A stretch of DNA of 64,000 bases from a virus: IMG/VR virus record IMGVR_UViG_3300029784_000281, one strand, 5' to 3'. Both the position numbers and the translations under genes were made by a program. This document shows, one piece after another, positions 12 to 59,705 of this stretch (its first letter is position 1; each line of letters opens with the position of its first letter). Below the pieces are notes generated by a model. That model saw only the letters and a program-made list of their open reading frames with translations. It was not told the origin of the DNA and made no database searches.

Positions 12-1223
12 GTGGCGCAACCACAGCCTCAAGTACAATCTCCGGCACCTGTTCCCGGTACGGTGGGAACGGCTATACCGGATGTGGGGACCGCCCCGTT
101 GCAGGCCCCATCTTTAACGCAAGCGCCGGTGAAACCAGAGGCAACCCCGTTGTCCATGTATGACAAGTTCGCGGATATGACAGCCGAGCAAGCCATTAAC
201 ACGGGTGAGATAACCCCGCAAGGATATTGGAACATACAAAGCGAGGCGATCAAGGCGGGTAAGCGTGATCCTTACTCCACGGAGGAGATTATCGAGATGA
301 TGCGTACGAGCGATCCCGAGTACGAGACGGGCGAGCAAAGGGCGAGACGTGAGAGGAACGACCGGGCGAGCCGTGCCATAACGGGGATAAGCGACCTGAT
401 AAGCAACATAGCCGGAATGGTGGGGACGGCCAAGGGATCGAGTCCCGTGGTCGTGAACAATCTCGCTCCCCTTGACGCTAGGCAACGTGAGATAACGGAA
501 AGGAGAAACGCCTTGAAGAGGAAATACGATACGTTGCTCACGAACGCCAAGATGGGTGAGATAGCCTATCAACGTGATCTGGAGGCGGCTAGGCAAAAGG
601 CGCAGAGGGATTATCGTTTGAAGCTGGCCTTGAAGGATATTGACGCTAGGATAAGGAAGGGCGAGATCGATCAAAAGCAAGCTAACGTAATGACATTGGA
701 GGCGTACAGGCAAGCGAACAGAATGGCTACGGAGCAATTCAAGGCAGAGAACCGATCCAAGGAAGAGGCGGCGAACCGAGCGAACCAGATAAAGGTCGCT
801 AACATAAGATCTGGTGGTTCTGGAGGAGCGAAGGATATTGTACTGTTTGGTCGAGATAATGAAGAGTTTCGTATACCTAGAGATAAGGTGGACGGATTTG
901 TTACAGCGGCCTATCAAGCCATGAAGGATTTGATTGATAAAAAAAATAAAGAAATTGAGCAGGACTCTTCCTTGACCAAGGAAGAAAAAGAGAATCTAAA
1001 ATTATCAGATATAGATGATATTAAACTTGTGATGGGTGAGGGCGGTGATCAGATAGGCAAAGCGAGAGCGATAGTTGGTAGACGGCTAGCTGATTTCCCG
1101 GAACTGTATCCAATGCTGAAAGGCATGCTTGAGGATCGTTCTGATAGTTATAAGAATATCAATCTGAATGATGATGCAAAAGAAAGTGTAAACGAAAAAT
1201 ACAAGTGGATTCATGGACTCTAA
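12..1223 (+). CDS. hypothetical coiled-coil protein, probably 5'-truncated by the window edge. It overlaps the start of the giant gene by 11 nt.
   Basis: The ORF is open from the window edge, with no in-frame stop upstream of nt 12. The protein is charged and coiled-coil-like with good coding appearance. The stop TAA sits inside ATGGACTCTAA, the start of the next gene. Confidence 0.5.
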   Translation: MAQPQPQVQSPAPVPGTVGTAIPDVGTAPLQAPSLTQAPVKPEATPLSMYDKFADMTAEQAINTGEITPQGYWNIQSEAIKAGKRDPYSTEEIIEMMRTSDPEYETGEQRARRERNDRASRAITGISDLISNIAGMVGTAKGSSPVVVNNLAPLDARQREITERRNALKRKYDTLLTNAKMGEIAYQRDLEAARQKAQRDYRLKLALKDIDARIRKGEIDQKQANVMTLEAYRQANRMATEQFKAENRSKEEAANRANQIKVANIRSGGSGGAKDIVLFGRDNEEFRIPRDKVDGFVTAAYQAMKDLIDKKNKEIEQDSSLTKEEKENLKLSDIDDIKLVMGEGGDQIGKARAIVGRRLADFPELYPMLKGMLEDRSDSYKNINLNDDAKESVNEKYKWIHGL

Positions 1224-4200
1224 CATAAAACATTTATATGATACGATGATAAGCCGGGGCTATACTGGTCTTGGTGATTTCTCAAACTTTGAGGGGAAAA
1301 TGAAAGATTCTGGGAAAAGAAAATTGGTTTATGATCATCTGATGCAGGATGATTATTTCTCTGAGATAGGCGATTTCTCCAAATTTGAGAGTGCCCTAGG
1401 GTATTCGCCCGTTGAAAGGAAAGATTACGTTTCTCAATCAAGCGTTAATCCTGCACCTATCGCTTTAAGACAGGAGGTTGACGTGCCTATGAAAGATCAA
1501 TCCGAGTATGTTAATCCATGGGATAATTCTGCCGATTATAATTTTGAGTCCTTGCGTAAAAAAGGAAAGATTGAGACCGCTACTCCTCCACCTCCTACGG
1601 AGTATGAGAAGGATTCTTCTTTCATGAATACTTGGGTAGGAGACGCTATACAGAAGCTGAACGCAGGAGGAGCCGATCTTGGTGCCGGTATCTTTGGGGT
1701 CTTGGATAAGGAGTCCAAAGGACTGGAATCCTCAACTGGAGGATTGATCTCACGTGGCGGGGCATTCAAGGATATCTCAGATAGATTTAAGGCTGATGCG
1801 GAGTTTTCCCGGGCAAGGTCAAACAGATACAATGGCAAGGATTTTATCGATCTGTGGAAAGAAGGGAATTATATGGGTGCCATAGGCGATATAGCCTTGC
1901 AAGGCATAGAGTCGCTTCCGATGTCAATCGGGGCCATGGCCGCTACAATGGCCGGAGCTCCAGCGGCCGGACTCGCTGGTATAGGGTCAATAGTGGCTAG
2001 CCAGAAATATGATGATCTCGATCAGAATAACCCAAACATGGGAGAGTTCGCAAAGGTATCTAACGCTATTATTACTGGTACAGCGGAATCCTTGTCTGAG
2101 ATGCTGGGCGCTGGCGTATCCAAGGCTTGGATGTCAACCTTATTCAAGACGCTAGGAAAGGAAAAGGCGCAAGAGGCTATCAAACGTGGCATAATGGGTA
2201 AGATGCAAGAGCTCTATAAAAAATTCGGTATGTTTTTCGAACCTGTAAATGAAGGTGTCGAAGAGGTGTCTTCCACGCTAGCGGAGAATATAACGGATAA
2301 GATAACTGGTGCGGATCCGGAAAGGGATTTGACCGATGGTGTATTGCAGAGTTTTGTCTATGGTATGGGAGGCGGCGCTTATTTTACTGGAACCGGAGCG
2401 TTGGCTAAAGGTGCGCAATACGTAGCGGATAAAATAGGAGGCAAACAGGCTCAGCAGCCTATCACCGATTCCAATGTAACAGATCAAGGCGTTAACACTC
2501 CTCCTCAATCCACTAAGTCTATAATTGACGATGCCTTTGAGCAAGGACGTAATATGAGTGATAAGGGAGATCTTAGGGATTTATCCTTACAAATGGAAGC
2601 TTCGAGGACTGCTCTAACAGAAAAAAATCCAAATTTGGCTATAAGAATGGAGCAGTATATAGATAATGGAGCGAGTGAGAACCAAATAAATGAGATGCTT
2701 AAAGGTGTAGATAATGAGACAAGAGAATTAGCTTATGATTTCTATATTAACACCCAGAAAATTAAAGGGGTAGAAGATAAATCGATAGAAAATATTAATA
2801 ACGAAGTGGATTCTTATATGTCTGATAATATTATTCCCTATGTATCGATAAGTCCTAATGGGAGACAAGTCATATCTACCGCTACGTTCAAGGAAGGACT
2901 TGAGAACAAGAAAGTTTATATAAGGAGCATAAATGGGGATAACGTCATTATCTCGGATAACGGAAATAATCGTATGGTTCCTATGAGTAGTTTGAGCGAT
3001 ATAGAGGAAAATGACGTGGAACAAATAAGGAACTCTTATCGTCAACAATTATTGGTTACCCGCCAGTCCGAGCTTGACATGACCATGCATCATAATCCCA
3101 AGACGCAATTACCAAAGCCGGGATTGGTCATATGGAACGGGGATAATGCGTTTATTCTTCAAGGACAAGATGAGAACGGTGATTGGATCGCTCAACCTGC
3201 GGCTTATGATAGAGAAACCGGGCAGGTGACAGCCAAGAATGGCTCTTCTCCAGCAATGCCTATAACAGAGAATGAGATTCTTGATCTTCAAGATGCCATA
3301 TATGACGCTCAACAAGTTAATGTGGTGTCGCCAGAGGATGATAATGTTGAAAGTGCTGATGCTGAGATAACCTCTGCACCTCCCGTGGAAGATGCGATCA
3401 ACCAGCCAACGAGTGAGATTGAGACGGAAGGTGCCATTGATCAGATAGCACAACCTAGCAATGTGGAGAATCCCTCCATGGTCATGCGAGAAGATGGTAC
3501 GCCAGATTTCGTGTCGTCTGGGGTGGATGCTACATTGGATTTCCTCCATGATAAATACGGAGAGAAGATGCCCAAGAAGATCGAGGTGACAAGGAAGGCG
3601 TTCGACGAGGATCTCAAGAAGGCTTCAGAGAAACTGGATAAGGCCCAAGAAGCATATGACAATGCCCCTATCGGAAAAGAGGATAAGGTCGAGGCCGCAC
3701 TGATCAAAGCCAGACAAGAGTATGATGCGATCAAGGTCGAGGCTGATTTCTGGGCTAATCTTGATAATCGGTTGAAAGAGGAAAGCGAAAAGGCTACTGC
3801 CACTTCAGGTCAAGTTATCGATATCTCGGAAAAAGAGGATACGGAACCTGTCGACATCAAAAACGAAGATGTGGTTACACAAGAAGGCGCATCCGGAGAG
3901 GTAAAAGAATCCGGTAGCAATCTGTTCAATTATTTTACTGGAAGCCTTTCTGATTTGATTGAGCAGGCAAAGAAGTCTGCCGGGAAGTTGATCAAGAAAA
4001 TCGTCGCACCCGTATCTGACCGTCTTAGGAATGACTTGGAGATAAAAGGCGTATCTATCACAAGTGATTATAATCACGTTATAGATAACAACGCTATACG
4101 GCATACTCTTAAGCAACATGGTGGTAACAGCGAGATTAAACGTGGGCAAGTCCCTGTTAACGATTCCGATTTTGATAAAATATCAGACATCGTAGAAAAC

Positions 4201-7200
4201 TATGATGATATAAAGGTCGAGGATGGAAAGAGAGGAGATGTGAACATCATTTACTCAAAAAACTTCAATGATGGTACTACAATATTCGTTGAGGAGAAGC
4301 GTGATAAGCGTAAGGAATTAGCCGCTGTCACCATGTGGAAAATGAAAAATCCTATTCTCACCGGCGCTAATAGCGATAACGCTACGCCAATTCCGGATTT
4401 GAACAGGATTAAAAGACAAGCTGAACGTAAGGGCGGCGAACTCCTCATACTGACCCCAAAAAGGGCGGCGGCAAGCCTTTCCACTTTTCCGGACAACTCG
4501 TCTTCTACCGACAAAGGTAGTATATCCTCTTCTGAAAACCAAGCGAATGAGGCTAAATCTTTTGTCGCCCCTTCCCCAAAGGAGAGTGAGAACCCATTGG
4601 ACTATGCCGAGCGCATAGTTGAGGCTAAGAGATTGCACGATGAGGAGCTAAAGGTTGACACTACCCCTTCCGAGGCACAGAAAGAGGCCGGGAATTACAA
4701 GAAAGGCCATATAAAGATAAACGGTTTCGATGTTACCATAGAGCAGCCTGCCGGTTCCGTCCGTTCCGGAAAGGACGTTAATGGAAAAGAGTGGTCTGTT
4801 ACCATGAGTAACACTTACGGTTATATCCGTGGCACCGAGGGTGTGGATGGTGATCATATAGACGTATTCTTAGGTCCGGATATGAATAGTGACATGGTGT
4901 ATGTTGTGGATCAGGTGAATACTGATGGCTCATTCGACGAGCATAAGGTTATGATGGGATTCCCTTCCTTGGAAGACGCTAGGTCCGCTTACTTGTCAAA
5001 CTATGAGGAAGGCTGGAAAGGGTTAGGCAACATTACCGGGGTCACGTTGGATGGGTTCAAAAAATGGATCGATTCCTCGACCCGGAAGACCAAGCCGTTC
5101 TCTGAATATAAAAGTGTTAAAGCTATAGAAGAGAAGACAAATAACGAAAAGCCCCAAATGCCCCTTACTGAGGATGAATACGCGGAACAAAGGAGTAAAG
5201 AGATTATGGGCGATAATCCGGGTATGGATGATATTGGCGCTTATAATCAAGCGTTGGATGAGTATCCTTCATATATAAGAAAGATGGTCGATAATGGTTC
5301 GATGAGAGACTCGTACTTAAAAGGATCTGTAGGAGAAAGGATTAAACTTGGAAAGATCATGAACGCTGCCGGATTTGAACTGTCTGAGATATCAAAAGGC
5401 TCACGAGAAGAGTCTATTATGGAGTCTGATTTTAAAGTTGGCGATAAAGTAACTATCCGTTTTTATGATGGATTATATCATACGGGAGAGATATCAAAGA
5501 TGTCAAAAGACGGGAAAGTGACCGTTTATGCAGACGGAAAGAATTACACCGTATCTCAAGACAGGATTTTATCGGATAGTGATGTTCGTTTTCGTTCTAT
5601 AGGAGAGAAAGACACTGATAACTTAAATAATGCTGAAACTATTGAATCCTCAATCAACGATTGGTCAAACAAGCTTAATACCCCTGTCAGGGTAATCCAT
5701 GACGTGGACGATATAACCGATACAGATGAGAATATGTTGGCCCGTAAGAGAGATTCCAAAGGCTGGTATGATACTTCTACCGGGGAGATAGTCATAGTAT
5801 CACCTAATTCCACGTCCGTAGGTGACGCTCAAAGAACTTTCCTCCATGAGGTGGTAGGGCATCACGGGCTACGTGAGTTATTCGGGGATGATTTCGATAC
5901 TTTCCTTGATAACGTGTATCGGAACGCCAACGAGGATATCCGGAAAAATATCATTGACCGGACTAAAGGCAATCCTCTTAACTTGCGTGAGGCTACAGAG
6001 GAATACCTCGCTGAATTAGCGGAACGTGGTTTCGATAACAAGGCCGAGCGTTCGTTATGGGAAAAGATCAAGGACGCTTTTCTTGATATGTTGAGAAAGG
6101 CAGGTATTAGCCTTGATTTCAAGTTATCGGATAATGACCTCCGTTATATTCTCTGGAGAAGCTATAAGAACTTGGAGCAAGGAAATTTGATGGATGTGGC
6201 TGAGGATACGGTAATGAGGAATGATTTGGGTATCGGGGATTTTTCTGTTCGGTTTAGGGAAGCGAAAACAGAAGTGGAGAATGAAGAACCTTTGAATAAG
6301 GAAATGGTTGACGCTTGGGATAAAGTGGCATCTTCAGACAGTTTTAAGTTCAAAGAGGCTATGGTTGACTCTTTAACAGCTATAGATGAGTTCTTGAAAT
6401 TATTGGCCAAGAAAACCAAATCGAAGATACTGGATTACGAGAACCCATATTACGCTCTTATAGCCTTGTCTTCAAAGAATAAGGCGGATATGGATAGTTT
6501 CGACTCTAAATTCCTTAATCCTTTGAATGAGGCTATAAGGGCATTGATAGGTGATGTCTCAGAGGTGTCCAAGAAAGGTTTAAGAAGAACTTGGGATTGG
6601 TCTAAAGGGCCATTAAGGGATCTGGTTAAATATGTACAATCTAAACACGGTATCGAGAGAAACCGTGATATGTCCGTAAGGGATGGCATAGAAACTCTTA
6701 AGGCGTTTGACGTGGACGCTTTGTCTAAAATGGGGGTTATCTCCGACTCTGATCTTAAAAACGCTAAAAAAACAGCGGAAAAGGTTGCGGAGGAAAAGGG
6801 GAGTGAGGCTTACAAAAAGACGTATGACAAGGTTCTTGGCAAGGAACTAAAGAAAGGTGTTGATAAAGATAAGGCTGAGCGTTCTGCTGAGATAGCCGCC
6901 GATTATCGGAAATCATTTGTCAAATCCGAGATCTATAACAAGGAGATGGATAAATATAAAGAAAAGGTGACCGGAACGTTGATTGATAGGTGGGAAGATT
7001 CAAAGAAAGATGTCCTTAATAAGGATCTAGCGTGGGACGAGGAACAAAAGGAGTTGGATCGAGAGGCATTGTCATTCCAATGGAAGTTAGGCGATAATTC
7101 TTATGGTGTGATTCTAGGAAAGGACTATAGTGGTTTGTCTTCAGTGTTTAAGCCTTCGGAGGATGGAGCGAATAAAGATAAATGGCTTTCTGACGCTTAT

Positions 7201-9714
7201 GATTTCGTGAGAGATTATGAGTCTACCCATAATATGGTTTTAGTCGATAATCTATGGGATAAGGTTCATAACGTGTCAGAGTATACGTTAAGGAGGCAGT
7301 ATGAGTCCGGGCTGATAAGCAAGTCCTATATGGATAAGAACCTTTCCCGGTTTAAGTACTTTATCCCGTTGAGAGGTTTCTCCGATAATATTGCCTCCGA
7401 TGTTTATGATTACATAGACGCTACGGAGATAAAGATGGGAAACCCAGTGAAGACCGCTAAAGGACGTATCTCTGAGGCTGATAATCCTTTCGCTGGTTTG
7501 ATACACGTTGGATACGGATCTATTACCGCAGGAAATAGGAACTTGGCGAAACAACGTTTTCTCAATTTAGCTAGCAATCATGACACTGGCGGTCTTATTA
7601 CCATAGATAATATCTGGGTTCGAAATGTCGGTACCGAGGAAAATCCGGAATGGGTGGAGTCCATTCCGCAAATACCGGATAACGCTTCTGGCGAGGAAGT
7701 GGCCAAGGCGGTGAAAGATCATGAGGAAATGATGAGAGAGCTTAGAGAGGAAGGTAAGGCTGAGCTGATTAAAGGAGGTCGATCGGATATACCATATAAA
7801 ACATTGTATGACCAGAGAAGCCAGCATCAGGTACAGGTTTTCGTGGGAGGTAACAGGTATGTCATGACCGTTAATGGCAATCCCCGATTGGCGCAAGCGG
7901 TAAATGGATTGACTAATCCGGATGTGAAGGATGATCTCGCTTACGTCGTAGCTAGGAACTTGAAAACATTTATGGCCGGAGCTTTTACGTCCAAGAACGT
8001 GGCGTTCTCGTTTGCCAACTTGATAAGAGATACGCCTTATGCCAATAACTCCGTGTTTGTGACGGAGAACTTTAGGTATTTCAAGGATTTTTCAGGGAAT
8101 CAGAGGCGAGCGTTATTTGGACTTCGGAGTTTAGGTCGTAATCTGTATAAATACAGAAGGGGAGAGATTGATATTTCTGATAAGGAACAGGCGATATTTA
8201 AGGAGTTCATGGATAATGGAGGGGCTACTGGATATACGTTCGTGGAGACGCAAAAGGAATACGCCAAGGATTTAGCGAACAAGTTAGAGAAACTTTCGGA
8301 TGGTAATATTGGGAAGTTATCCCCCAAAGAACTAGTCTCTACTGTATTTGAGTGCTTTGAGTTCATGGGTAACGTAGCGGAACTTGTGAACCGATATGCG
8401 GCGTATAAGACGAGCCGGGAACATGGAAGATCCATTGACCGGTCAATCAATGATGCCAAGGAGGTATCGGTTAACTTTAACAAGAAAGGTGCCGGAAAGA
8501 AAACGAAGAGCGATAAATGGTATATTAACACAGTAGCGTGGATATCTGAGTATGGAAGAGATTGGGTGTTGTTCTTTAACGCCGCCGTTCAAAGCATGTA
8601 TAAGGAATATTCCATGCTGAGAAATCATCCAATTAAAGGAATAGGTTCCCGTATAGCCCCACTAATATTCATGGGATCGTCTGTCTCGTTGCTCAATAAT
8701 CTGTTTATGCCTATGCTCTTCGCTTATTTGGGATGGGATAGCGATGATGATGATAGGGATTATTTTGATTCATTGAGCGATCATGAGAGACAGAATAATA
8801 TATGTATTCGTTTGACTCATGGTCGTTGGCTCAAGATTCCGTTATCTCCGGAGCTTGCCAATTATTTCAAGATCGGAGATATAATTGCCGGGCAATTATC
8901 TGGTAAAAGGGAAGTGGAGGCGATGGATGTCGTTAAGACAGGGATTGATATGGTATCTCCGTTAAACATAAACTGGGAGTATGATAGTTGGAAGTTCGCT
9001 CTAAATCTCCTGCCTACGGTGGTTCAGCCTATCGCCCAAAACGCCTCTAACGTGAATTTTATGGGTAATCCTATCTATAAGACCTCGATGAATAAGGCTA
9101 ATGATTATGATCCGGAGTACACCAAGGTCTACAGGAGTACCAGTACCACCATGGTTGAGTTGTCGAGGGCACTTAACTCGTTGACGGGTGGCGACGATGT
9201 CAAGAGAGGTCTGAGCTTTAATCCGGCTACTTGGCAGAACATTTTTTCTGGATATACGGGAGGTTTTGGTACCGTAGCCTTGGGGGTGTCTGATTTAGTC
9301 CTTGATATACTGTCCGGAGAGGATGGAGATATGCCAGTGAGTCGTTATCCACTGTTAAGCCGTTTCTTGACCGGAGGGGACAAGGATTTGAAGCTGAGCC
9401 GGATGAATTCCATATATAACAAGAAGGTCGTAGACTTTGTCTCGGAAATGGATCATGATTACAAAGGGTATCTAGAGAAGTCCATGGACCCATCTATCAA
9501 TATTCTTGACAGGGCAGAATATATCGTAAAACTTGAGAAGTTTATGAAAAGTGATGATTTCAAGAAATCTCAAGAATTATCTCAATACGTGAGAGCCATA
9601 TCCGATATGGAAAGGTTCCTTCGTGAGGTAGGTAGCGATAATGATTCTCTGGAGAACCAAGTGTACGAGCTGAAGCTACGAGCGTTGGAGATATTTGAGG
9701 ATTCAGATGAGTGA
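1213..9714 (+). CDS. giant (2833 aa) multidomain virion-associated polyvalent-type protein. It carries a zincin-like HExxH metallopeptidase motif and an inorganic-pyrophosphatase-like segment.
   Basis: Uninterrupted 8.5-kb ORF. HEVVGHH at nt 5845-5865 (about aa 1545). NTYGYIRGTEGVDGDHIDVFLG at about nt 4810-4875 resembles the family I PPase signature (NYGFIP...DGDPLDVLV). All antisense ORFs in this span look spurious. Confidence 0.8.
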   Translation: MDSNIKHLYDTMISRGYTGLGDFSNFEGKMKDSGKRKLVYDHLMQDDYFSEIGDFSKFESALGYSPVERKDYVSQSSVNPAPIALRQEVDVPMKDQSEYVNPWDNSADYNFESLRKKGKIETATPPPPTEYEKDSSFMNTWVGDAIQKLNAGGADLGAGIFGVLDKESKGLESSTGGLISRGGAFKDISDRFKADAEFSRARSNRYNGKDFIDLWKEGNYMGAIGDIALQGIESLPMSIGAMAATMAGAPAAGLAGIGSIVASQKYDDLDQNNPNMGEFAKVSNAIITGTAESLSEMLGAGVSKAWMSTLFKTLGKEKAQEAIKRGIMGKMQELYKKFGMFFEPVNEGVEEVSSTLAENITDKITGADPERDLTDGVLQSFVYGMGGGAYFTGTGALAKGAQYVADKIGGKQAQQPITDSNVTDQGVNTPPQSTKSIIDDAFEQGRNMSDKGDLRDLSLQMEASRTALTEKNPNLAIRMEQYIDNGASENQINEMLKGVDNETRELAYDFYINTQKIKGVEDKSIENINNEVDSYMSDNIIPYVSISPNGRQVISTATFKEGLENKKVYIRSINGDNVIISDNGNNRMVPMSSLSDIEENDVEQIRNSYRQQLLVTRQSELDMTMHHNPKTQLPKPGLVIWNGDNAFILQGQDENGDWIAQPAAYDRETGQVTAKNGSSPAMPITENEILDLQDAIYDAQQVNVVSPEDDNVESADAEITSAPPVEDAINQPTSEIETEGAIDQIAQPSNVENPSMVMREDGTPDFVSSGVDATLDFLHDKYGEKMPKKIEVTRKAFDEDLKKASEKLDKAQEAYDNAPIGKEDKVEAALIKARQEYDAIKVEADFWANLDNRLKEESEKATATSGQVIDISEKEDTEPVDIKNEDVVTQEGASGEVKESGSNLFNYFTGSLSDLIEQAKKSAGKLIKKIVAPVSDRLRNDLEIKGVSITSDYNHVIDNNAIRHTLKQHGGNSEIKRGQVPVNDSDFDKISDIVENYDDIKVEDGKRGDVNIIYSKNFNDGTTIFVEEKRDKRKELAAVTMWKMKNPILTGANSDNATPIPDLNRIKRQAERKGGELLILTPKRAAASLSTFPDNSSSTDKGSISSSENQANEAKSFVAPSPKESENPLDYAERIVEAKRLHDEELKVDTTPSEAQKEAGNYKKGHIKINGFDVTIEQPAGSVRSGKDVNGKEWSVTMSNTYGYIRGTEGVDGDHIDVFLGPDMNSDMVYVVDQVNTDGSFDEHKVMMGFPSLEDARSAYLSNYEEGWKGLGNITGVTLDGFKKWIDSSTRKTKPFSEYKSVKAIEEKTNNEKPQMPLTEDEYAEQRSKEIMGDNPGMDDIGAYNQALDEYPSYIRKMVDNGSMRDSYLKGSVGERIKLGKIMNAAGFELSEISKGSREESIMESDFKVGDKVTIRFYDGLYHTGEISKMSKDGKVTVYADGKNYTVSQDRILSDSDVRFRSIGEKDTDNLNNAETIESSINDWSNKLNTPVRVIHDVDDITDTDENMLARKRDSKGWYDTSTGEIVIVSPNSTSVGDAQRTFLHEVVGHHGLRELFGDDFDTFLDNVYRNANEDIRKNIIDRTKGNPLNLREATEEYLAELAERGFDNKAERSLWEKIKDAFLDMLRKAGISLDFKLSDNDLRYILWRSYKNLEQGNLMDVAEDTVMRNDLGIGDFSVRFREAKTEVENEEPLNKEMVDAWDKVASSDSFKFKEAMVDSLTAIDEFLKLLAKKTKSKILDYENPYYALIALSSKNKADMDSFDSKFLNPLNEAIRALIGDVSEVSKKGLRRTWDWSKGPLRDLVKYVQSKHGIERNRDMSVRDGIETLKAFDVDALSKMGVISDSDLKNAKKTAEKVAEEKGSEAYKKTYDKVLGKELKKGVDKDKAERSAEIAADYRKSFVKSEIYNKEMDKYKEKVTGTLIDRWEDSKKDVLNKDLAWDEEQKELDREALSFQWKLGDNSYGVILGKDYSGLSSVFKPSEDGANKDKWLSDAYDFVRDYESTHNMVLVDNLWDKVHNVSEYTLRRQYESGLISKSYMDKNLSRFKYFIPLRGFSDNIASDVYDYIDATEIKMGNPVKTAKGRISEADNPFAGLIHVGYGSITAGNRNLAKQRFLNLASNHDTGGLITIDNIWVRNVGTEENPEWVESIPQIPDNASGEEVAKAVKDHEEMMRELREEGKAELIKGGRSDIPYKTLYDQRSQHQVQVFVGGNRYVMTVNGNPRLAQAVNGLTNPDVKDDLAYVVARNLKTFMAGAFTSKNVAFSFANLIRDTPYANNSVFVTENFRYFKDFSGNQRRALFGLRSLGRNLYKYRRGEIDISDKEQAIFKEFMDNGGATGYTFVETQKEYAKDLANKLEKLSDGNIGKLSPKELVSTVFECFEFMGNVAELVNRYAAYKTSREHGRSIDRSINDAKEVSVNFNKKGAGKKTKSDKWYINTVAWISEYGRDWVLFFNAAVQSMYKEYSMLRNHPIKGIGSRIAPLIFMGSSVSLLNNLFMPMLFAYLGWDSDDDDRDYFDSLSDHERQNNICIRLTHGRWLKIPLSPELANYFKIGDIIAGQLSGKREVEAMDVVKTGIDMVSPLNINWEYDSWKFALNLLPTVVQPIAQNASNVNFMGNPIYKTSMNKANDYDPEYTKVYRSTSTTMVELSRALNSLTGGDDVKRGLSFNPATWQNIFSGYTGGFGTVALGVSDLVLDILSGEDGDMPVSRYPLLSRFLTGGDKDLKLSRMNSIYNKKVVDFVSEMDHDYKGYLEKSMDPSINILDRAEYIVKLEKFMKSDDFKKSQELSQYVRAISDMERFLREVGSDNDSLENQVYELKLRALEIFEDSDE

Positions 9715-15985: not shown

Positions 15986-17920
15986 TTATAATTGTTGATT
16001 GATAGCGTCGATGCCTTGGCCGGCTATCATTTGTTGTTGCTGAGCGGCTAATTGTTCCTTCTGCGACTGGATCAATTGCAATAACTGATCGGCGAACGGG
16101 AAATTTCCCACCTCGAGCATTTGCTCGATAGATATCTGCTTGGCGTTCAGCAACTGCAATAGCAACTCGTTGGATAACGCCCTGTATACCGGAGTGTCGT
16201 AGTTCTCTGATATGGATATGTCGAATTCCACGCCTCCCATGGTCTCCGGGTCCCATTGGACATAGCCGTTCCTTCCAACGATCCTTATTATTTTTTTATC
16301 GTCGTAGAATTGCTGGATGTTCTTGCACTTCTTGTACATGCCCGATATGATGAAGCTGGCGAACGATTCCAGCAAGTCCACGATGCTGTTGCTGGCGTTG
16401 GACGCTTGTTGCTGGTATAAGGCTCCGCTTGTCCCGCTCGTGGGCTGTTTCCCCTGCATGGCCCCTTGTACCCCGGATACGTCCTCCATCATGGACATCT
16501 GTAATTTTATCATGTCTCCCAACCCTGCCGGCACGCTCCGGTTCATCATCTGCTGGGGGACCTGTGCCCCCGATTTGAGTTTCAGCTTGATCACGCCGTT
16601 GAACTTCGTCCACTCGTCCGCTATATCCTCTATGCTCATGTCATCGGGAACGGAGGCCTCGTCTACCACCAGCACTCCCTTGGCGCTCGCTTTCGTCACG
16701 AAATCGTTCAGGATGATATAATGGTTGATATACCTTTGCTGGTCGATGATGTCGCTGACGAACGAGTGTATCTCCCCGTCAACGAAAGGATATGCCTTCA
16801 TCGTGTAAGGGTGGCTCCCGTGGCTATAAGGGCTTTCTCCCTCGTCAAGTATATCCCCGAACGGTGAAAGATAACGGTAGTACCAGTAGCTTTGTATCAT
16901 GTACTCGTACTCTATGAGCGGGACCTCGCTCTCTGGCATGTATAGCGTGGGTTGTCCCAGCTCGTCCAGCACGTAATTCCCCAGCTCGTCCTTGATCCTG
17001 TTATCCTCCAGCCGGCCCTCGTTCTCAGCGTCTATGTTCCCCTTGTTCGAGTAACTGTCCACGTAAGCGTCGCCCTTCAGCCAGTCGTGGCACCAGAACG
17101 CCTTTCTTCTCTCGAGCGTCCATAGTTCTATCACACGGCATAAGCGGGGGTCTTGCGGGGCCATAAACCCGTTAAGGTCATAATTGTTGCCCTTGAACGT
17201 GTCGTTGAACTTGGCGATATAGTCCTTGTCACGGGCGTTCTTGTATATATCTTGCAGCCTTTCATAATCCCTGTCATCCTTGGCGAATACGCTGGCGAGT
17301 TGCCCGAAGGTCACGTCATGGATCTCTCCGATCATCTCGATGTCGGTATGTCTGGGATCGTTCATGGGGCCGTCCACGAAGAACAGGTTCGGGTTGACGT
17401 TGTCAGTCCAGCATTCCCTTCGGTTTTCCCTTTGGGCGTAGGTCTCTTTCTGTATGGATAGGCCGCTTATGAGGAACTCCTCGAACATCCTTGCGTTCAG
17501 CTCCTTGATGTCGTTGATCTTGTTGTTGTACTCGAGCATGGTGCTCATGGTCTCTCCCAGCGTTTGCTCGTCACGATCCCTCGCCACGCACACGGGTGTC
17601 TTGTTCTGGTTCCGATAAACGCCGATGACGGTCCTAGCCAATCTTCGGATAAGGTTGTTGGTCATGGGGATATTCCCCTGCATCCTTATATATTCCTCCT
17701 CCGGGATCATCCGGCCACAATACTCGATCAGGTCCCCCCATTGGTCGCCGTACATATATCTCTTGTTCCTGTCCCTCTCTTTCCTGAACTTGTCGAGCTT
17801 GTCCCATGCCCTAGCGCATTGGTATACCAATGGCATGTTCCGCCCGTCCGTCATGTTTCGTCTCTCGTATTTGACGGTGTCTATAGGTGATATCCTCGAT
17901 TTAGGGATCAATCTAGTCAT
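15986..17920 (-). CDS. portal protein (candidate)
   Basis: 644-aa protein encoded immediately downstream of the large terminase on the same strand, with the acidic, Gln-rich C-terminus typical of portals. The call rests on position and size only. Confidence 0.55.
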   Translation of the reverse strand: MTRLIPKSRISPIDTVKYERRNMTDGRNMPLVYQCARAWDKLDKFRKERDRNKRYMYGDQWGDLIEYCGRMIPEEEYIRMQGNIPMTNNLIRRLARTVIGVYRNQNKTPVCVARDRDEQTLGETMSTMLEYNNKINDIKELNARMFEEFLISGLSIQKETYAQRENRRECWTDNVNPNLFFVDGPMNDPRHTDIEMIGEIHDVTFGQLASVFAKDDRDYERLQDIYKNARDKDYIAKFNDTFKGNNYDLNGFMAPQDPRLCRVIELWTLERRKAFWCHDWLKGDAYVDSYSNKGNIDAENEGRLEDNRIKDELGNYVLDELGQPTLYMPESEVPLIEYEYMIQSYWYYRYLSPFGDILDEGESPYSHGSHPYTMKAYPFVDGEIHSFVSDIIDQQRYINHYIILNDFVTKASAKGVLVVDEASVPDDMSIEDIADEWTKFNGVIKLKLKSGAQVPQQMMNRSVPAGLGDMIKLQMSMMEDVSGVQGAMQGKQPTSGTSGALYQQQASNASNSIVDLLESFASFIISGMYKKCKNIQQFYDDKKIIRIVGRNGYVQWDPETMGGVEFDISISENYDTPVYRALSNELLLQLLNAKQISIEQMLEVGNFPFADQLLQLIQSQKEQLAAQQQQMIAGQGIDAINQQL

Positions 17921-17985: not shown

Positions 17986-20061
17986 TCATATGGTAGCCTC
18001 GCTGATAGGACCATGGGGCCTTACGCCGGGGGACTTATCCTTGGGGATGGACGGCAGATCCATGTCGCAATAACATATATAAAGTCCTATAGCCCTAGTC
18101 ATGACCTTGTCGTCGTGCTTGCCTTCCACGGCCCCGAACGATCCGTTGGCTTTCTTCTCGTACGTGGACATCTCATCCAGCGTGTCTATATCCCGCTCGA
18201 TATATGACTGTTCTCGGAGGCATGCCACGAGATAGGATATGATCATTGGCTTGGTGTTCCGGTTCGTGTGGAATCCCCATTCCGTCAGTTTTCCGGCCCG
18301 TATCTTGGCCTCGCTCGCCTTACGTGCGTACAGGTTGTCGTAAGCGTCCCCGATCTGGTTGAATATCAACTCGGACTGGTTTCCGTCCGTATCGTTGTCC
18401 TTGGTCTCTATGGTATTGCTCTCTATGACTAACAGGGCGTTCCCGAAAAACTTGGCGATCTGGGCGGATTTCCATGCTAACAGGTCATGGTCTATGTGTC
18501 CGTGCCATTCGGCCACTACCTCCGGCTTCCCGCCAAACATCATCCAATAGCGGTCTATCACCAAGATGTCCGAGAAATCGGATTTCTTTCCACGGCCCCC
18601 TATATCCACGATCACGAGGTAACGATTCTTGACGTTCGCTTGATCGTCTGGCAACGACCATACCTTGAGCGACCCGTTATGATCCTCCTTGAATGACAGC
18701 TCTGTCAAGGCGCTCTTCCCTTTAACGGACTTGCCCGATATTTCCCCGACATACTTGGGGGGCTTGCATCCCTCCTTCAGCTTGTCTATATGATATACGC
18801 TGAATACCATGTTGCCGGAGTTCTTGAACGCCTCCACGTCATCGCTGGGAAACTCCGCCGCCATGTCCGCGTGCTCCATGAAATCCTTCCGCTTGACTAA
18901 ATACCAGTTTATAGCCTCAAAGGAAGCCCCCAGCTTCCATAGTCTCCAGTAATATTTCCCGGGGTCTAGGCATCCATCCGGAGGATTGTCGTTCTCCTTG
19001 TTGTCAAGAAGCCATTTGGCGAATGCCCTCTTGTCCTTCACGGGTAGCTCGTATCTCTCGATCTTGAACCATGGGACGAATACGAACCTCCTGTTGCTTT
19101 TGCCTTTCTTGGCCGTGACACATGACCGGTAGAAGAAATTTCCCATACCGTTAGCGGTGGATTCTATGACCTCCACGGTAAGCGGGGCCAATAGCAAGGA
19201 TGAGGATATGCTCCTTATTATATCTTCCGGGGTTTTCCCGTCCGTGTCATCCCATAATCCCACCTCGGAATAATGTACGCAGCTCATGTCACCGCCCCGT
19301 CCCGAGTTTGGGCTGTTATAGGTGCCTATGGTTATGACCGTGTCCCTTGCCTTCTCCACGTTGCTCCCTTTCCCATACGTTATGATACTGTCCAATTGCG
19401 ATCCCTCGTAAGGCGTGAATCCCAGCGTGACGTTATCCGGCAGGTCCAATAGCCATGTGGGGTATTTCTCCAGCATCTTGCTATACATGGCCTTGATTTT
19501 CCTTGACGTGGATGCGTCTTGCGCTACGATGGTGGAGTACCACGCCTCTTTATGGCATAGTTGTATCCACGCTATATATAGCTGTACCAACGTGGAACCT
19601 CCCCATTGCCGGGCCTTTAGCAGGATGATCCTTATGGGTAGTCCCGCCAATCTCATATTCTCCATCACGGATAGCAGCAGGCGTTGTGGATAGTTGAGCT
19701 TGAAATGGATGTTCTTGCCTCCCTCCTTGTTCTTTATCTCGCAGAAAGAGTAAGCCCAGAAAGGGAAGTCATGCTTGTTCCTTACTTTTATGAACTGTCG
19801 TACGACCTTCTCATGAAGTTCCTCGTCATACCTCTTGAAGGTGACCTTGCAAAAGGCCCTTATGGATTTATACCTTATTATTCTTTTAACTAGCTTGTTT
19901 GATAGCATGCTGACTGGCAGGAGCATCTTGTATGGGTACATGTCGGATATCTCGACCATCTCTCTTGTCCCGGGCGAGTTCTCTCCCTTGATAGGGTCGA
20001 AATGGGCGTGCATCTCGTCGTTCCTCCTGTTATTCTCCTCTACTAACCAATCTATAGTCAT
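17986..20061 (-). CDS. terL: terminase large subunit
   Basis: The Walker A-like LKARQWGGSTL matches the terminase ATPase motif. 691 aa, adjacent to the portal candidate. Confidence 0.75.
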   Translation of the reverse strand: MTIDWLVEENNRRNDEMHAHFDPIKGENSPGTREMVEISDMYPYKMLLPVSMLSNKLVKRIIRYKSIRAFCKVTFKRYDEELHEKVVRQFIKVRNKHDFPFWAYSFCEIKNKEGGKNIHFKLNYPQRLLLSVMENMRLAGLPIRIILLKARQWGGSTLVQLYIAWIQLCHKEAWYSTIVAQDASTSRKIKAMYSKMLEKYPTWLLDLPDNVTLGFTPYEGSQLDSIITYGKGSNVEKARDTVITIGTYNSPNSGRGGDMSCVHYSEVGLWDDTDGKTPEDIIRSISSSLLLAPLTVEVIESTANGMGNFFYRSCVTAKKGKSNRRFVFVPWFKIERYELPVKDKRAFAKWLLDNKENDNPPDGCLDPGKYYWRLWKLGASFEAINWYLVKRKDFMEHADMAAEFPSDDVEAFKNSGNMVFSVYHIDKLKEGCKPPKYVGEISGKSVKGKSALTELSFKEDHNGSLKVWSLPDDQANVKNRYLVIVDIGGRGKKSDFSDILVIDRYWMMFGGKPEVVAEWHGHIDHDLLAWKSAQIAKFFGNALLVIESNTIETKDNDTDGNQSELIFNQIGDAYDNLYARKASEAKIRAGKLTEWGFHTNRNTKPMIISYLVACLREQSYIERDIDTLDEMSTYEKKANGSFGAVEGKHDDKVMTRAIGLYICYCDMDLPSIPKDKSPGVRPHGPISEATI

Positions 20062-56038: not shown

Positions 56039-58132
56039 TTATTTTTTATAAAAGCCTTGAAACCTCACGATACCTAGATACTCGGGAGATTTCATTAGTC
56101 CGTCCCCCATGCCGCCCAACGTCTCGGCTCCCGGCTCGTCAAGGACAACCTTGGAGTCAATCTCCTTAGGTACACGGAAGCATATCTGTACGGGGAAATT
56201 CACCTTAGCGTCTCCCGTGATCACGTTAACCGACGCTCTTTGCGTAGCCGCCATGATCCGGAACCCAAGCGATCGTCCCTTTTGTAGCAACATCTTCAGA
56301 TTCTCCTCCAATGACTTTTCACGACCGACCGTGCGTAGTTCCATTTTAGGCTCGAGGAACCCGAAGGCGTTCTTTCGCTGGCCAACCTCGACCATTTCCT
56401 TTATGTCAAGTTCCGTTCCCGATCGGGAGGACGCTACCGCGTCGGCGAACTCATCGAACACCACCAGCGTTTTCCATGATGCCCTCGATTTAGCCCTTTC
56501 CTGCATATCCTGTACGAGTTCTTTCATCTTGGCCTCTATTTCTTCTATATCATTATAGACCTTTATGTATTTCTCGGAGGAATAATTACAGAACTCGTAT
56601 TTCGGATCGAAAATTACGATGTCCCGGATACCGGCTAAGCGGGCGTATTCTATCGTGGATATGATACACACGGATTTACCGCTACCGGTAGCTCCGCAAA
56701 TCAAGGCGTGAGGCGTGGAGTTGTTATCGAGATCCCACACCACGAGCCTTCCGAAGTTATCCGTTCCTATGGGAATCCTCATGCCGTCGATATACTTCTT
56801 GTCCCAGTACAAGGACTTGGTTCTTTTCTTCGGTGATTCTATGGAGAGGTAGGATTTTCCCTCATACACCATAAGCTCGTTACCCATCCTTATGGATGGC
56901 ACGTCCAGCGCGTTCGCTATGTCTAGCTTGTATTTCATCACTGTCGTGATCTTTGTCCCAGCGGATACCTCTAGCAGATACGTGTCTGACGAGTACCCGT
57001 TAATCTCCTTGGCCACGTTCACGATCACCCCGAATGTCCGTAGGATATGCTCTATTTTCTCGCTGTTTGTCATATTACTATTGGATAAATCATATTGAAT
57101 GAATGAGGAAGCGTTCCTCTTGAACTCGGATATTACCTTGGGGTTTACCGATCCAAGGGAAGCGTCCCGTATTTTTTTCTGTCTCTTCGATATCAATTCC
57201 TTCTTTGACTCGGGCACGTTGAAATCATCGACCTCCGCTATCAGCGTCTTGGCCCAGAAATTATAAAGCTCGGCCCTGTCCACGAAGTTGTCGCTATCGT
57301 TGATCATGTACACGTAATCCGGATCGGACACGGCCTCTATCATTCTTTTTAGCGGCTCGTACAATATGGCCTCGTAAAGCTTCCTCGTGTCGTTATCGAG
57401 ATTGATCACGAATTTCTTCAACTGGGAGGAGCCGTCCTTGTTTTTCGAGATCTTGTTCTCCACGAACCATACCTCGTCAACATTCTCCCCGAAGCGGGAC
57501 TCATAGCACTTGACGTAGGTCATTGCCTGTTTCCCGCAGATAAACGTTAGCTCCTCGTCATCGGTGAACTTGGCCCTTGACTTATGGTCTATGATGACCG
57601 TCCGACCGCTTTCCGTCCTTATCGCCAAGTCTAGCCTAGCGTGGCAGGGCAGGGGGATGTCCACCCCGTTTATCGTTACCCATTCCTCGCACCTTGATTC
57701 CACGGCGATTATCTCCTTGATACCGGAAAGATAGATATCCTTCTCCCCGTAGAAGTTATTGATAAGCCTCGTGGCGTTCTTGGTGGCCTCGATCTTGCAT
57801 TCCTCTACGGTAGGTGTCGTTTTCTGTATCTTCCAATCATTCGGGTGTACCTCCTCTATGTATGAGAACGCTACCCTCTCCATTTCCGTGATCGGTATTA
57901 TCTGCCCCTTGCGCTGTAGCTCCATGAAGAAATACTCCAAGGCCGAATGATAGGCGTTACCCGCTACCGTGCTGGAGGATGATCTGGATCTTTCCCGGTA
58001 AATCTCCCGTTTCTCGAACTCCTTCTCGTTCCGGGAGAAAGAGGCTACCTTGCTGTAACTCCAAGAGTCAATAAGGTAGTTTGATAAATGCTCCTCCAGC
58101 TCGGCGTTGGTATAGGATGAGTACTTGTTCAT
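56039..58132 (-). CDS. fusion protein with an N-terminal RecB/Cas4-like PD-(D/E)XK nuclease domain and a C-terminal FtsK/SpoIIIE-type P-loop ATPase
   Basis: N-terminal LIDSWSYSKVASF, then motif II ARLDLAI and motif III VIIDHKS (compare RecB-family hhDYKT). C-terminal Walker A LICGATGSGKSVCI and Walker B LVVFDEFADAV. Confidence 0.6.
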   Translation of the reverse strand: MNKYSSYTNAELEEHLSNYLIDSWSYSKVASFSRNEKEFEKREIYRERSRSSSSTVAGNAYHSALEYFFMELQRKGQIIPITEMERVAFSYIEEVHPNDWKIQKTTPTVEECKIEATKNATRLINNFYGEKDIYLSGIKEIIAVESRCEEWVTINGVDIPLPCHARLDLAIRTESGRTVIIDHKSRAKFTDDEELTFICGKQAMTYVKCYESRFGENVDEVWFVENKISKNKDGSSQLKKFVINLDNDTRKLYEAILYEPLKRMIEAVSDPDYVYMINDSDNFVDRAELYNFWAKTLIAEVDDFNVPESKKELISKRQKKIRDASLGSVNPKVISEFKRNASSFIQYDLSNSNMTNSEKIEHILRTFGVIVNVAKEINGYSSDTYLLEVSAGTKITTVMKYKLDIANALDVPSIRMGNELMVYEGKSYLSIESPKKRTKSLYWDKKYIDGMRIPIGTDNFGRLVVWDLDNNSTPHALICGATGSGKSVCIISTIEYARLAGIRDIVIFDPKYEFCNYSSEKYIKVYNDIEEIEAKMKELVQDMQERAKSRASWKTLVVFDEFADAVASSRSGTELDIKEMVEVGQRKNAFGFLEPKMELRTVGREKSLEENLKMLLQKGRSLGFRIMAATQRASVNVITGDAKVNFPVQICFRVPKEIDSKVVLDEPGAETLGGMGDGLMKSPEYLGIVRFQGFYKK

Positions 58133-58929
58133 GGCATGCTATCTCTTTTTGATTTTGAGGATTTCATCTTTTCTTTTTTAGATTTTACGTCTTGAGGCTT
58201 ACCGTGTGAGAAGACCTTGTTGTCCCCGATATCATCCACTTCCTCCTTGGTGAGGAATCCCATACTGATCTCGGGGCAAAACGTCCGTTGCCAGAACGCT
58301 GCCGCCCGATAAGTGAGCATGAGGTTTGGCATCGTTTGCCATTTACTTCCGGATTTGGTAAACCATCCTTCCCTTATGGCGGTCTCGATCGTTATCGGGT
58401 CAGATTCGAAGACATCCCCGGAAGATAGTTCTGTAGCATAGGCCACGCATTCTATGTTATCAATGTCCGTCCCGTCAAATTCTCTTGATACCAAAGTGTT
58501 CTTTCTTGCCACGTTGTCCCATACGGTCTCATTGAACATAATCTTGCCGATCTTGCCTAGGCTCTTTTTCTTATATCTGAGAGCGGAGAACCTGCCGCTC
58601 ATGTTGATTAATGCGATTAGAAACTTACTGGACCATGACGGAACTCCCTTTACGATGTATAGATTCTGCATTACCATTAGTGGGTTGGCGTTCATCCGCA
58701 TGGAAATATCTAGCGCTATAACGCAATTTCCTACGTTGTTTTTATAAATCTCTGGAACTATGGTACTTTCGCTATACATGATTCCCATTCTTTGCATGGT
58801 CTCAAATTGTTTGACGGTCTGCCCCAATGGGGTTGCACTGAACTCTGCTGCTTGCTTAGCTTGAAGTAATTGTAATTTCGTTAATTCTTTGTTCTCTTCC
58901 ATATTATTGTTGATTAAATTATTTACCAA
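58129..58929 (-). CDS. recT: RecT-family single-strand annealing recombinase
   Basis: The domain order and conserved blocks (GNCVIALDISMRMNANPLM...QNLYIV...KFLIALINMSGRFSAL...WQTMPNLMLTYRAAAFWQRTFCPEI) parallel E. coli RecT. 4-nt overlap with the nuclease-ATPase gene. Confidence 0.7.
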   Translation of the reverse strand: MVNNLINNNMEENKELTKLQLLQAKQAAEFSATPLGQTVKQFETMQRMGIMYSESTIVPEIYKNNVGNCVIALDISMRMNANPLMVMQNLYIVKGVPSWSSKFLIALINMSGRFSALRYKKKSLGKIGKIMFNETVWDNVARKNTLVSREFDGTDIDNIECVAYATELSSGDVFESDPITIETAIREGWFTKSGSKWQTMPNLMLTYRAAAFWQRTFCPEISMGFLTKEEVDDIGDNKVFSHGKPQDVKSKKEKMKSSKSKRDSMP

Positions 58930-59069
58930 TACAATGTTGACATTTCCCAGTCCCTCTGGATTTTGTCTTCCTCATATTCCTCGTTGTCTTCCTCCCCATC
59001 GTACTCCGGTTCGCCGTCGGGGTCTTTGATGTAGATGTCTCTCATGAGCTCCATCGATAAGCAAGGAAT

Positions 59070-59705
59070 TTATTCGATCTCGATAATCTTGAATTTTCCT
59101 TTCTTTATATATATCTTATGATTGTGGTAGTCTTTGACTATTCCATGATCGGAAACTGTGTTTATGTTCCCTGTGCAATCCTCAACATATGAGTTATCGT
59201 AAGCCTCGACCTTGGCAGAGCCGTAAGCCTCGACCTTGGCAGAGTCGTAAGCCTCGACCGTGGCAGAGTCGTAAGCCTCGACCGTGGCAGAGTCGTAAGC
59301 CTCGACCGTGGCAGAGTCGTAAGCCTCGACCGTGGCAGAGCCGTAAGCCTCGACCGTGGCAGAGTCGTAAGCCTTGACCGTGGCAGAGCCGTAAGCCTCG
59401 ACCGTGGCAGAGCCGTAAGCCTCGACCGTGGCAGAGCCGCAAGCAAATGATTTAGCATTAGAGGTGTGTTCTTTTCTTGTGTAAATACCGGCTTCGGCTA
59501 ATTCCTCTTCAGAAAAGTTATTTTCTAGGTAATTTGCGTCAATCATCTTGGATGCACTCAAGACCCAATACCAATTATTGGTTATTGCTTTCAGCAAATC
59601 TTGTTTGCTTTTTGCGTTTAACCCCATCCTGTATCCATCTTGACAAGCGTTATGTTTTTTAGCCCGTTCAAGCAGATCCTTCTTTAATTCCTCGAATGTC
59701 TTCAT
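59070..59705 (-). CDS. protein containing about 11 tandem 8-aa repeats (G/D-S-A-T/K-V-E/K-A-Y)
   Basis: The ORF spans a 24-bp tandem nucleotide array. N- and C-terminal unique regions look protein-like. Confidence 0.6.
   Translation of the reverse strand: MKTFEELKKDLLERAKKHNACQDGYRMGLNAKSKQDLLKAITNNWYWVLSASKMIDANYLENNFSEEELAEAGIYTRKEHTSNAKSFACGSATVEAYGSATVEAYGSATVKAYDSATVEAYGSATVEAYDSATVEAYDSATVEAYDSATVEAYDSAKVEAYGSAKVEAYDNSYVEDCTGNINTVSDHGIVKDYHNHKIYIKKGKFKIIEIE
59177..59445. repeat. 24-bp tandem repeat array, about 11 copies (unit roughly cgtaagcctcgaccgtggcagagt), with point-variant units
   Basis: Visible directly. Units differ at two positions (gtc/gcc and cgtggc/cttggc), giving D/G and V/K alternation in the encoded peptide. 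Confidence 0.9.

Follow-up and report, generated by a model that had tools for sequence, protein, structure and literature searches.

The stretch of DNA considered here, in the following called the window, comprises 64,000 nucleotides of the IMG/VR virus record IMGVR_UViG_3300029784_000281, and its source is a tailed phage of gut Bacteroidales. Two overlapping genes on its minus strand (Table 1) encode a RecT-like single-strand annealing protein and a large protein, in which a nuclease is fused to an FtsK-type ATPase. The size of this open reading frame (ORF) and its overlap of four nucleotides with the recT-like gene had been noticed in a first-pass annotation and were found again; the junction reads AGC ATG CCA TGA / ATG AAC AAG, with ATGA as the shared nucleotides. 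However, it must be corrected that the fusion gene had been placed upstream of recT, which is true only in plus-strand coordinates, since in transcription the recT-like gene comes first and the fusion gene second. For the RecT-like ORF, the ATG at 58902 is an alternative and more likely start codon, which would give 257 amino acids, and the C-terminal tail of the protein reads KSKKEKMKSSKSKRDSMP. Its identification as RecT holds with the PHROGs family phrog_561 (E 1.2e-61), although the Pfam model RecT stays with 20.7 bits under its cut-off of 24.

Table 1. Coordinates of the fusion gene and its domains, the overlapping recT-like gene, and the portal and terminase genes in the window.
Feature	Position	Strand	Basis and remarks
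RecT-like single-strand annealing protein gene	58129..58929	minus	266 amino acids from TTG; ORF list, phrog_561
Nuclease-FtsK fusion gene	56039..58132	minus	697 amino acids, stop codon included in the coordinates; ORF list, Pfam PDDEXK_1, FtsK_alpha and FtsK_SpoIIIE
N-terminal RecB/Cas4/RecE-like PD-(D/E)XK nuclease core, residues 1-270	57323..58132	minus
Conserved helical linker (PDYVY...FWAKT...KRQKKIRD), residues 271-350	57083..57322	minus	joins nuclease to FtsK alpha
FtsK alpha domain, residues 351-434	56831..57082	minus	Pfam FtsK_alpha E 1.1e-7, over cut-off; aligns to the alpha region of 2ius/2iuu
FtsK beta (RecA-like ATPase) domain, residues 435-697	56042..56830	minus	alignment to FtsK structures
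Portal	15986-17920
Large terminase (TerL)	17986-20061

Within the N-terminal half, residues 23-226 are matched by the Pfam model PDDEXK_1 (E 1.6e-6, 28.7 bits at a cut-off of 22), and the fusion also matches the PHROGs exonuclease families phrog_1218 and phrog_69. Both nuclease motifs quoted in the first-pass annotation are present, RLDLAI at residue 166 and IIDHKS at residue 180. Among the aligned fusion proteins (22-26 sequences of 57-99% identity), the residues H62, E145, D168, D182-H183-K184 and Q202xxxY206 are invariant, which represent the RecB motifs including QxxxY. D168, D182 and K184 do not vary even in a wider set of 57 fused and stand-alone relatives, whose identity goes down to 20%. 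The alignment of these 57 relatives also served to model residues 1-345, and the resulting model reached a predicted local distance difference test score (pLDDT) of 94.3 and a predicted template modelling score (pTM) of 0.89. Among solved structures, it agrees best with nuclease domains from motor-nuclease resection enzymes and with those of phage exonucleases, with values of 16.9 for the AdnAB nuclease, 16.7 for Dna2, 16.4 for an exonuclease of Eubacterium rectale (3l0a), 14.0 for RecE, 13.6 for MGME1, 12.4 for Cas4, 12.2 for AddA and 8.4 for lambda Exo. When the same model was compared with viral models by Foldseek, 182 matches were obtained at E<=1e-3, and those carrying a name are phage PD-(D/E)XK, Cas4-family or RecB-family exonucleases of 250-400 amino acids. 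Hence, a nuclease fold is present in the structure prediction, and the N-terminal half is, as far as the model can tell, a RecB/RecE-type nuclease with a complete predicted catalytic site. PDDEXK_1, the motifs and the fold all speak for the earlier wording RecB/Cas4-like, and the RecB-like nuclease motifs are shared with Cas4. However, the four-cysteine iron-sulfur pattern of Cas4 is absent from the nuclease half, in which C163 is the one invariant cysteine and C112 almost invariant, and the domain is therefore not a Cas4 proper. Its neighbours are also phage replication and recombination genes and not those of CRISPR-Cas adaptation.

The ATPase half had been assigned broadly to the FtsK/HerA superfamily, and this assignment can be narrowed to the alpha and beta domains of FtsK without gamma domain. 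The Pfam model FtsK_SpoIIIE is matched over its cut-off (E 5.8e-9), the FtsK motor structures of E. coli and P. aeruginosa align to residues 355-694 (E 1e-27 to 1e-25; for the E. coli structure 2ius E 1.7e-27 over residues 366-694), and the PHROGs FtsK/SpoIIIE-like family phrog_1358 is matched with E 3e-43. DUF87/HerA matches the P-loop region 467-545 alone (26.3 bits). The beta domain contains the two previously quoted motifs, Walker A (GATGSGKS, residues 480-487) and Walker B (VVFDEFAD, 557-564), as well as QKGRSLG (617-623) and ATQRAS (629-634); Walker A, Walker B, QKGR and ATQR are invariant in the alignments of fusion proteins mentioned above. In the Pfam search of the fusion no match to FtsK_gamma was found at E<=1, and a gamma domain is missing since the fusion ends where the beta domain ends in the alignment with 2ius. 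Neither a membrane anchor nor another hydrophobic segment was found in the protein, the maximum Kyte-Doolittle hydropathy over 19 residues being 1.35 at the Walker A strand. Judged from its sequence, the motor half is a complete FtsK alpha-beta translocase module for double-stranded DNA (dsDNA), with intact predicted ATPase and arginine motifs. Cellular FtsK/SpoIIIE proteins have the alpha-beta motor with all ATPase motifs in common with the fusion, whereas their N-terminal membrane domain and their gamma domain (winged-helix, KOPS/XerD-interacting) are lacking here and a nuclease is found at the N-terminus instead. Hence, the name 'DNA translocase FtsK', which is given to this protein in databases, is misleading.

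The first-pass annotation had considered that the ATPase could turn out to be of a conventional packaging or conjugation type, which is not the case. A packaging ATPase is ruled out by the portal and TerL that the phage encodes itself, and a conjugative coupling ATPase is rejected on account of the missing membrane segment and of the scores of the TraB, CedB and VirB4-type NCBIfam models, which lie far under their cut-offs. Furthermore, a cellular FtsK or another host gene can be dismissed: the protein lacks the membrane and gamma domains, it reaches 94.2 bits with the FtsK equivalog of NCBIfam at a cut-off of 1566, and its close homologues are all located in phage contigs.

Between both halves lies a linker that includes in the model helices at residues 286-298, 308-326 and 331-344. 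No family match was found for residues 271-350; nevertheless, many columns of the linker are invariant in the fusion alignments, and few parts of the protein are as strongly conserved.

The fusion is a frequent protein. More than 4300 homologues were found in the protein database, the best 120 of which are all of full length with the same architecture and 64-99% identity, originate from genomes of Parabacteroides, Bacteroides, Phocaeicola and Coprobacter or from gut metagenomes, and are named either 'DNA translocase FtsK' by the Prokaryotic Genome Annotation Pipeline (PGAP) or 'hypothetical'. The cluster of 99%-identical proteins alone comprises 1384 member sequences. A search with the nuclease half alone against 1.84 billion cluster representatives resulted in 153 clusters at E<=1e-3. 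Among the best 150 of them (clustering at 50% identity), the FtsK half is likewise present in 64, with identities of the nuclease domain as low as approximately 25%, the others being fragments or nucleases of 230-335 amino acids that stand alone. The profile of the distant fused group recovered more than 120 further full-length clusters, all of them metagenomic, including a Tara Oceans sample, and typically situated on contigs of 35-43 kb. These comparisons point to an old origin of the fusion and to its wide distribution among uncultured phages, with at least two deep clades. Among the deposited phage genomes of INPHARED, there is no record with the full fusion; only matches of the FtsK half with at most 32% identity were obtained. 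One of them, the contig CAKLQF020000028.1 of 'Acinetobacter phage MD-2021a', carries cellular ftsK, minCDE, trxB and aat and seems to be a piece of host chromosome that was filed under phage by mistake. Stand-alone FtsK-like genes exist in many phages, for example in those of Mycobacterium, Bacillus and Listeria. In the Mycobacterium phage Optimus of cluster J, the stand-alone FtsK-like gp193 (JF957059.1 97263-100462) lies four genes from the Ku-like DNA-end-binding gp197, which represents another phage FtsK-like ATPase in a neighbourhood of DNA-end metabolism.

The coupling to single-strand annealing, which had been proposed in the first-pass annotation, is strengthened by the gene order at all loci analysed: a gene in the annealing slot accompanies the fusion in 75 of 75 loci from IMG/VR, 13 of 13 genome loci and six of six loci of the distant clade, at a distance of at most two genes. 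The IMG/VR loci all include the start of the fusion gene, and in every one of them a neighbouring gene terminates no more than a few nucleotides away from that start. The abutting genes encode RecT-like phrog_561 proteins, a classical RecT (PF03837, E 4e-44), a Sak4-like AAA_24 ATPase or proteins of phrog_3657. The last family, comprising proteins of 270-370 amino acids annotated with 'unknown function', takes this place in approximately 66 of the 75 loci (examples are L003:5168-6004 and L081:5177-6004). No Pfam, NCBIfam or PDB sequence match was found for phrog_3657 proteins, the hhalign probability of their relation to the RecT-like proteins is 6.6%, and the PDB profile search was empty. At the 13 genome loci, the abutting gene is phrog_3657-like six times, RecT three times, Rad52/Erf-like twice (with Pfam Rad52_Rad22 over its cut-off), Sak4-like once and of unknown family once. 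They span Parabacteroides, Bacteroides, Paludibacter, Flavipsychrobacter, Pedobacter, Chryseobacterium and Melioribacteraceae; since they were collected with a single pattern derived from a narrower N-terminal alignment, the taxonomic range found (Bacteroidota plus one metagenome-assembled genome of Melioribacteraceae) is a lower bound. In a Pedobacter genome (L089:5240-5998), the upstream protein of 252 amino acids has no PHROG or Pfam match, shares the tail ...NLNLP and is possibly another unrecognised annealing protein; the fusion copy of this locus gave no match to the Walker A pattern G-x-x-G-[ST]-G-K-[ST].

At the six loci of the distant clade, with approximately 25-30% identity of the nuclease domain, a RecT or RecT-like gene overlaps the fusion, lies directly upstream or has one or two small genes between itself and the fusion. 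One distant phage has an HNH homing-endonuclease-like gene (L101:2617-3123; phrog_99, E 9e-17) as an insertion between RecT and the fusion. Where relatives of the nuclease domain stand alone, they come immediately after an ERF gene, in which case SSB is nearby, or after a RecT gene. Hence, the nuclease lineage occupies the classical exonuclease slot, and the fused form has kept this position. In total, the fusion is linked to annealing genes of at least four recognised families and to one unannotated family, phrog_3657.

Moreover, the partner gene is exchanged between close relatives. Phages with a 99-100% identical fusion gene mostly have phrog_3657 rather than the RecT-like gene upstream. 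When window 58151-59064 is compared with phage L003 (L003:5004-5980), the nucleotide identity is 99% from window position 58151 downstream, whereas identity is absent across the annealing gene and returns with approximately 80% upstream of it at 58919-59064. This break at 58151, approximately seven codons before the start of the fusion, marks the annealing gene as an exchangeable cassette. The upstream proteins, although they belong to five unrelated families, have a lysine-rich tail in common (at window 58129-58200 in the RecT-like protein): KKxx(L/M/I)(K/R) occurs in 18 of 28 distinct tails, and 16 of the 28 end with (L/M)P, the final proline codon CCA supplying the A of the fusion's ATG. 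A similar motif, RKxxLR, is found in the tail of a RecT encoded beside a stand-alone nuclease (L105). With this shared C-terminal tail, the annealing proteins may carry a portable peptide by which they dock to the nuclease.

In our view it is fairly probable that the 697-residue fusion acts as the motor-coupled nuclease partner of a two-gene phage recombination module, in which it replaces the passive ring exonuclease. The ATP-driven resection, as already suggested in the first-pass annotation, is inferred and could proceed as follows. In FtsK, the alpha and beta domains assemble into a hexameric ring on duplex DNA, which drives the DNA from the beta to the alpha side, and rings of this type translocate on the duplex without unwinding it (PMC7321959). 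The fusion would assemble in the same way as a hexameric ring around duplex DNA and could thread onto a free end. Because of the direction of movement in FtsK, it is probable that the motor delivers DNA to the nucleases at the N-terminus, in the manner of HerA with NurA, and since the nuclease is N-terminal to the alpha domain, six nuclease domains are expected at the exit face of the DNA. The duplex would thus be pumped toward a crown of nucleases, which degrade one strand, presumably the 5'-ended one as RecE and lambda Exo do, and leave a 3' single strand. This strand would be coated by the co-translated annealing protein and annealed to its complementary target; the ATP-driven translocation may supply processivity and clear DNA-bound proteins from the path. 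A more far-reaching proposal, which we hold to be possible rather than probable, is a new class of phage recombination nucleases, the ATP-powered equivalent of archaeal HerA-NurA in bacterial viruses, in which a hexameric FtsK ring pumps the duplex into its own RecB-like domains and serves as the universal partner of RecT, Rad52/Erf-like, Sak4-like and phrog_3657 proteins that dock via KKxx(L/M)(K/R)...(L/M)P.

Phage modules of an annealing protein and an exonuclease are the basis of recombineering, and the textbook exonuclease in these modules is a passive, ATP-independent ring. With the Red and RecET systems, the present module shares the adjacency of an annealing-protein gene and a PD-(D/E)XK nuclease gene with intact predicted catalytic residues. 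However, the ring exonucleases lambda Exo and RecE work without ATP, whereas the nuclease studied here is covalently joined to an FtsK alpha-beta motor; in addition, the annealing gene here precedes the nuclease gene, and the annealing partner is interchangeable among several families. The closest functional analogy would be HerA-NurA of archaea, in which a hexameric pump for duplex DNA from the FtsK/HerA superfamily carries the nuclease on one face of the ring and resects ends for recombination. In that system, the two activities reside in separate proteins, NurA is not of the PD-(D/E)XK type and the downstream recombinase is RadA, whereas the fusion combines an ATPase of the FtsK clade including the alpha domain with a PD-(D/E)XK nuclease, and an annealing protein would act downstream. 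AddAB, AdnAB, RecBCD and Dna2 are alike in the logic of motor plus nuclease, but their motors are monomeric superfamily 1 helicases that unwind DNA and thread single strands, while the motor of the fusion belongs to the ring-forming duplex translocases of the FtsK family.

Other functions of the fusion must be weighed. It could act against the host, destroying both strands of host or competitor DNA for nucleotide scavenging, superinfection exclusion or counter-defence, and its adjacency to annealing genes would then result from shared early transcription. PHROGs indeed files phrog_1358, the best FtsK-like family, under 'moron, auxiliary metabolic gene and host takeover', and combinations of a nuclease with a HerA/FtsK ATPase are known as DNA-destroying defence effectors: DndH unites a nuclease of the restriction-endonuclease fold and a HerA/FtsK-type ATPase in one polypeptide (PMC10853773), and DUF4297-HerA has a nuclease-on-HerA architecture in one complex (PMC11291478). 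Nevertheless, DndH/DptH and DUF4297-HerA serve host defence and come with extra domains or partner genes, whereas the fusion is phage-encoded, consists of two modules and is coupled to several unrelated annealing families in two deeply diverged clades, in many cases through an overlap of stop and start codon. Furthermore, the stand-alone relatives of its nuclease sit in the exonuclease slot of ERF and RecT genes. The PADLOC models mad8 and SspH match the protein, but they do so in the ATPase half alone (residues 451-693), and no defence partner genes such as those of the DndF/G type are found in the neighbourhood; a defence-system protein was therefore rejected, and an anti-host nuclease appears unlikely to us. 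It could also be assumed that both halves work independently, with an ordinary RecE-like exonuclease on the one side and a motor for genome segregation, concatemer handling or replication-site targeting on the other, joined just for convenient co-expression. The nuclease occurs without motor beside RecT or ERF genes and so can work in this form, and FtsK-like proteins are encoded alone in many phages. However, fusion and linker were kept in the 64 clusters named above, and in the more than 120 clusters of the second clade. The high conservation of the linker argues for mechanical coupling and not for a loose tether, which makes independent halves rather improbable.

A further alternative places the fusion after the annealing step, where the FtsK ring would, like RuvB, pump the duplex arms of intermediates in recombination or replication and the nuclease would cut branched DNA. 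Junction resolvases are among the enzymes with a PD-(D/E)XK fold, which agrees with such a role. Duplex translocation without unwinding also suits branch migration better than strand separation (PMC7321959). Several findings contradict it: the motifs are those of the RecB family including QxxxY, the nearest structures are end-processing exonucleases and not resolvases of the Hjc or RecU type, a NinG/Rap endonuclease and a weakly matching RusA-like protein are already encoded in the same module, and the genes annotated around it offer no other candidate for the exonuclease. Hence, branch migration and junction processing are quite improbable as the function of the fusion. The role as motor-coupled partner of the annealing protein has to be viewed with caution as well. 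What is said above on the oligomeric state, on ATPase activity, on the polarity of the nuclease and on binding to the annealing protein is inferred throughout, shared early expression could by itself account for the adjacency of the genes, and the commonest upstream partner, phrog_3657, is with its low hhalign probability a candidate rather than an established annealing-protein family. Since FtsK does not unwind DNA, the selection of one strand by the nuclease stays unexplained, and six tethered nucleases could instead degrade both strands. Finally, the AlphaFold2 model of the full-length protein (pLDDT 71, pTM 0.44), which was not used for inter-domain geometry, is moderately confident and silent on the arrangement of the domains in a hexamer.

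Regarding its wider surroundings, the fusion gene is placed within a typical early replication and recombination block. On its 3' side follow the weak RusA-like ORF, the NinG/Rap junction endonuclease, DnaD-like and DnaC-like helicase loaders and an adenine methylase. In addition to portal and TerL, the window encodes tail fibre genes and an anti-repressor. The region of the virion genes includes an ORF of 2833 amino acids (window 1213-9714, plus strand) for a giant polyvalent protein, which matches the DarB-like antirestriction family phrog_10089 (E 1e-71) and also phrog_14770. Another ORF of 211 amino acids (window 59070-59705, minus strand) contains approximately 13 tandem copies of the 8-residue unit SATVEAYG/D. 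Many IMG/VR contigs of the phage stop close to this repeat, at a distance of approximately 1.2-1.5 kb upstream from the fusion gene, which suggests that these contig ends are assembly breaks.

Two-gene modules of annealing protein and exonuclease are well known, as are pairings of nucleases with FtsK/HerA ATPases. Of an FtsK-motor-fused nuclease as partner of phage annealing proteins, no description was found: a full-text literature search yielded no paper on this fusion or on its link to annealing proteins, and the 2004 survey of the FtsK-HerA superfamily might mention it. The protein is abundant and is currently mis-named as 'DNA translocase FtsK' in public annotation. If our interpretation is true, the module would be a source of candidate parts with which dsDNA recombineering could be set up in Bacteroides and further Bacteroidota, whose genetic engineering is difficult. 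It would also represent a natural system, in which one nuclease is combined with several unrelated annealing proteins, so that the specificity between exonuclease and annealase becomes directly testable. Moreover, it would mean that bacterial viruses also use a pump of the FtsK/HerA type for the resection of DNA ends, which is so far known mainly from the archaeal HerA-NurA.

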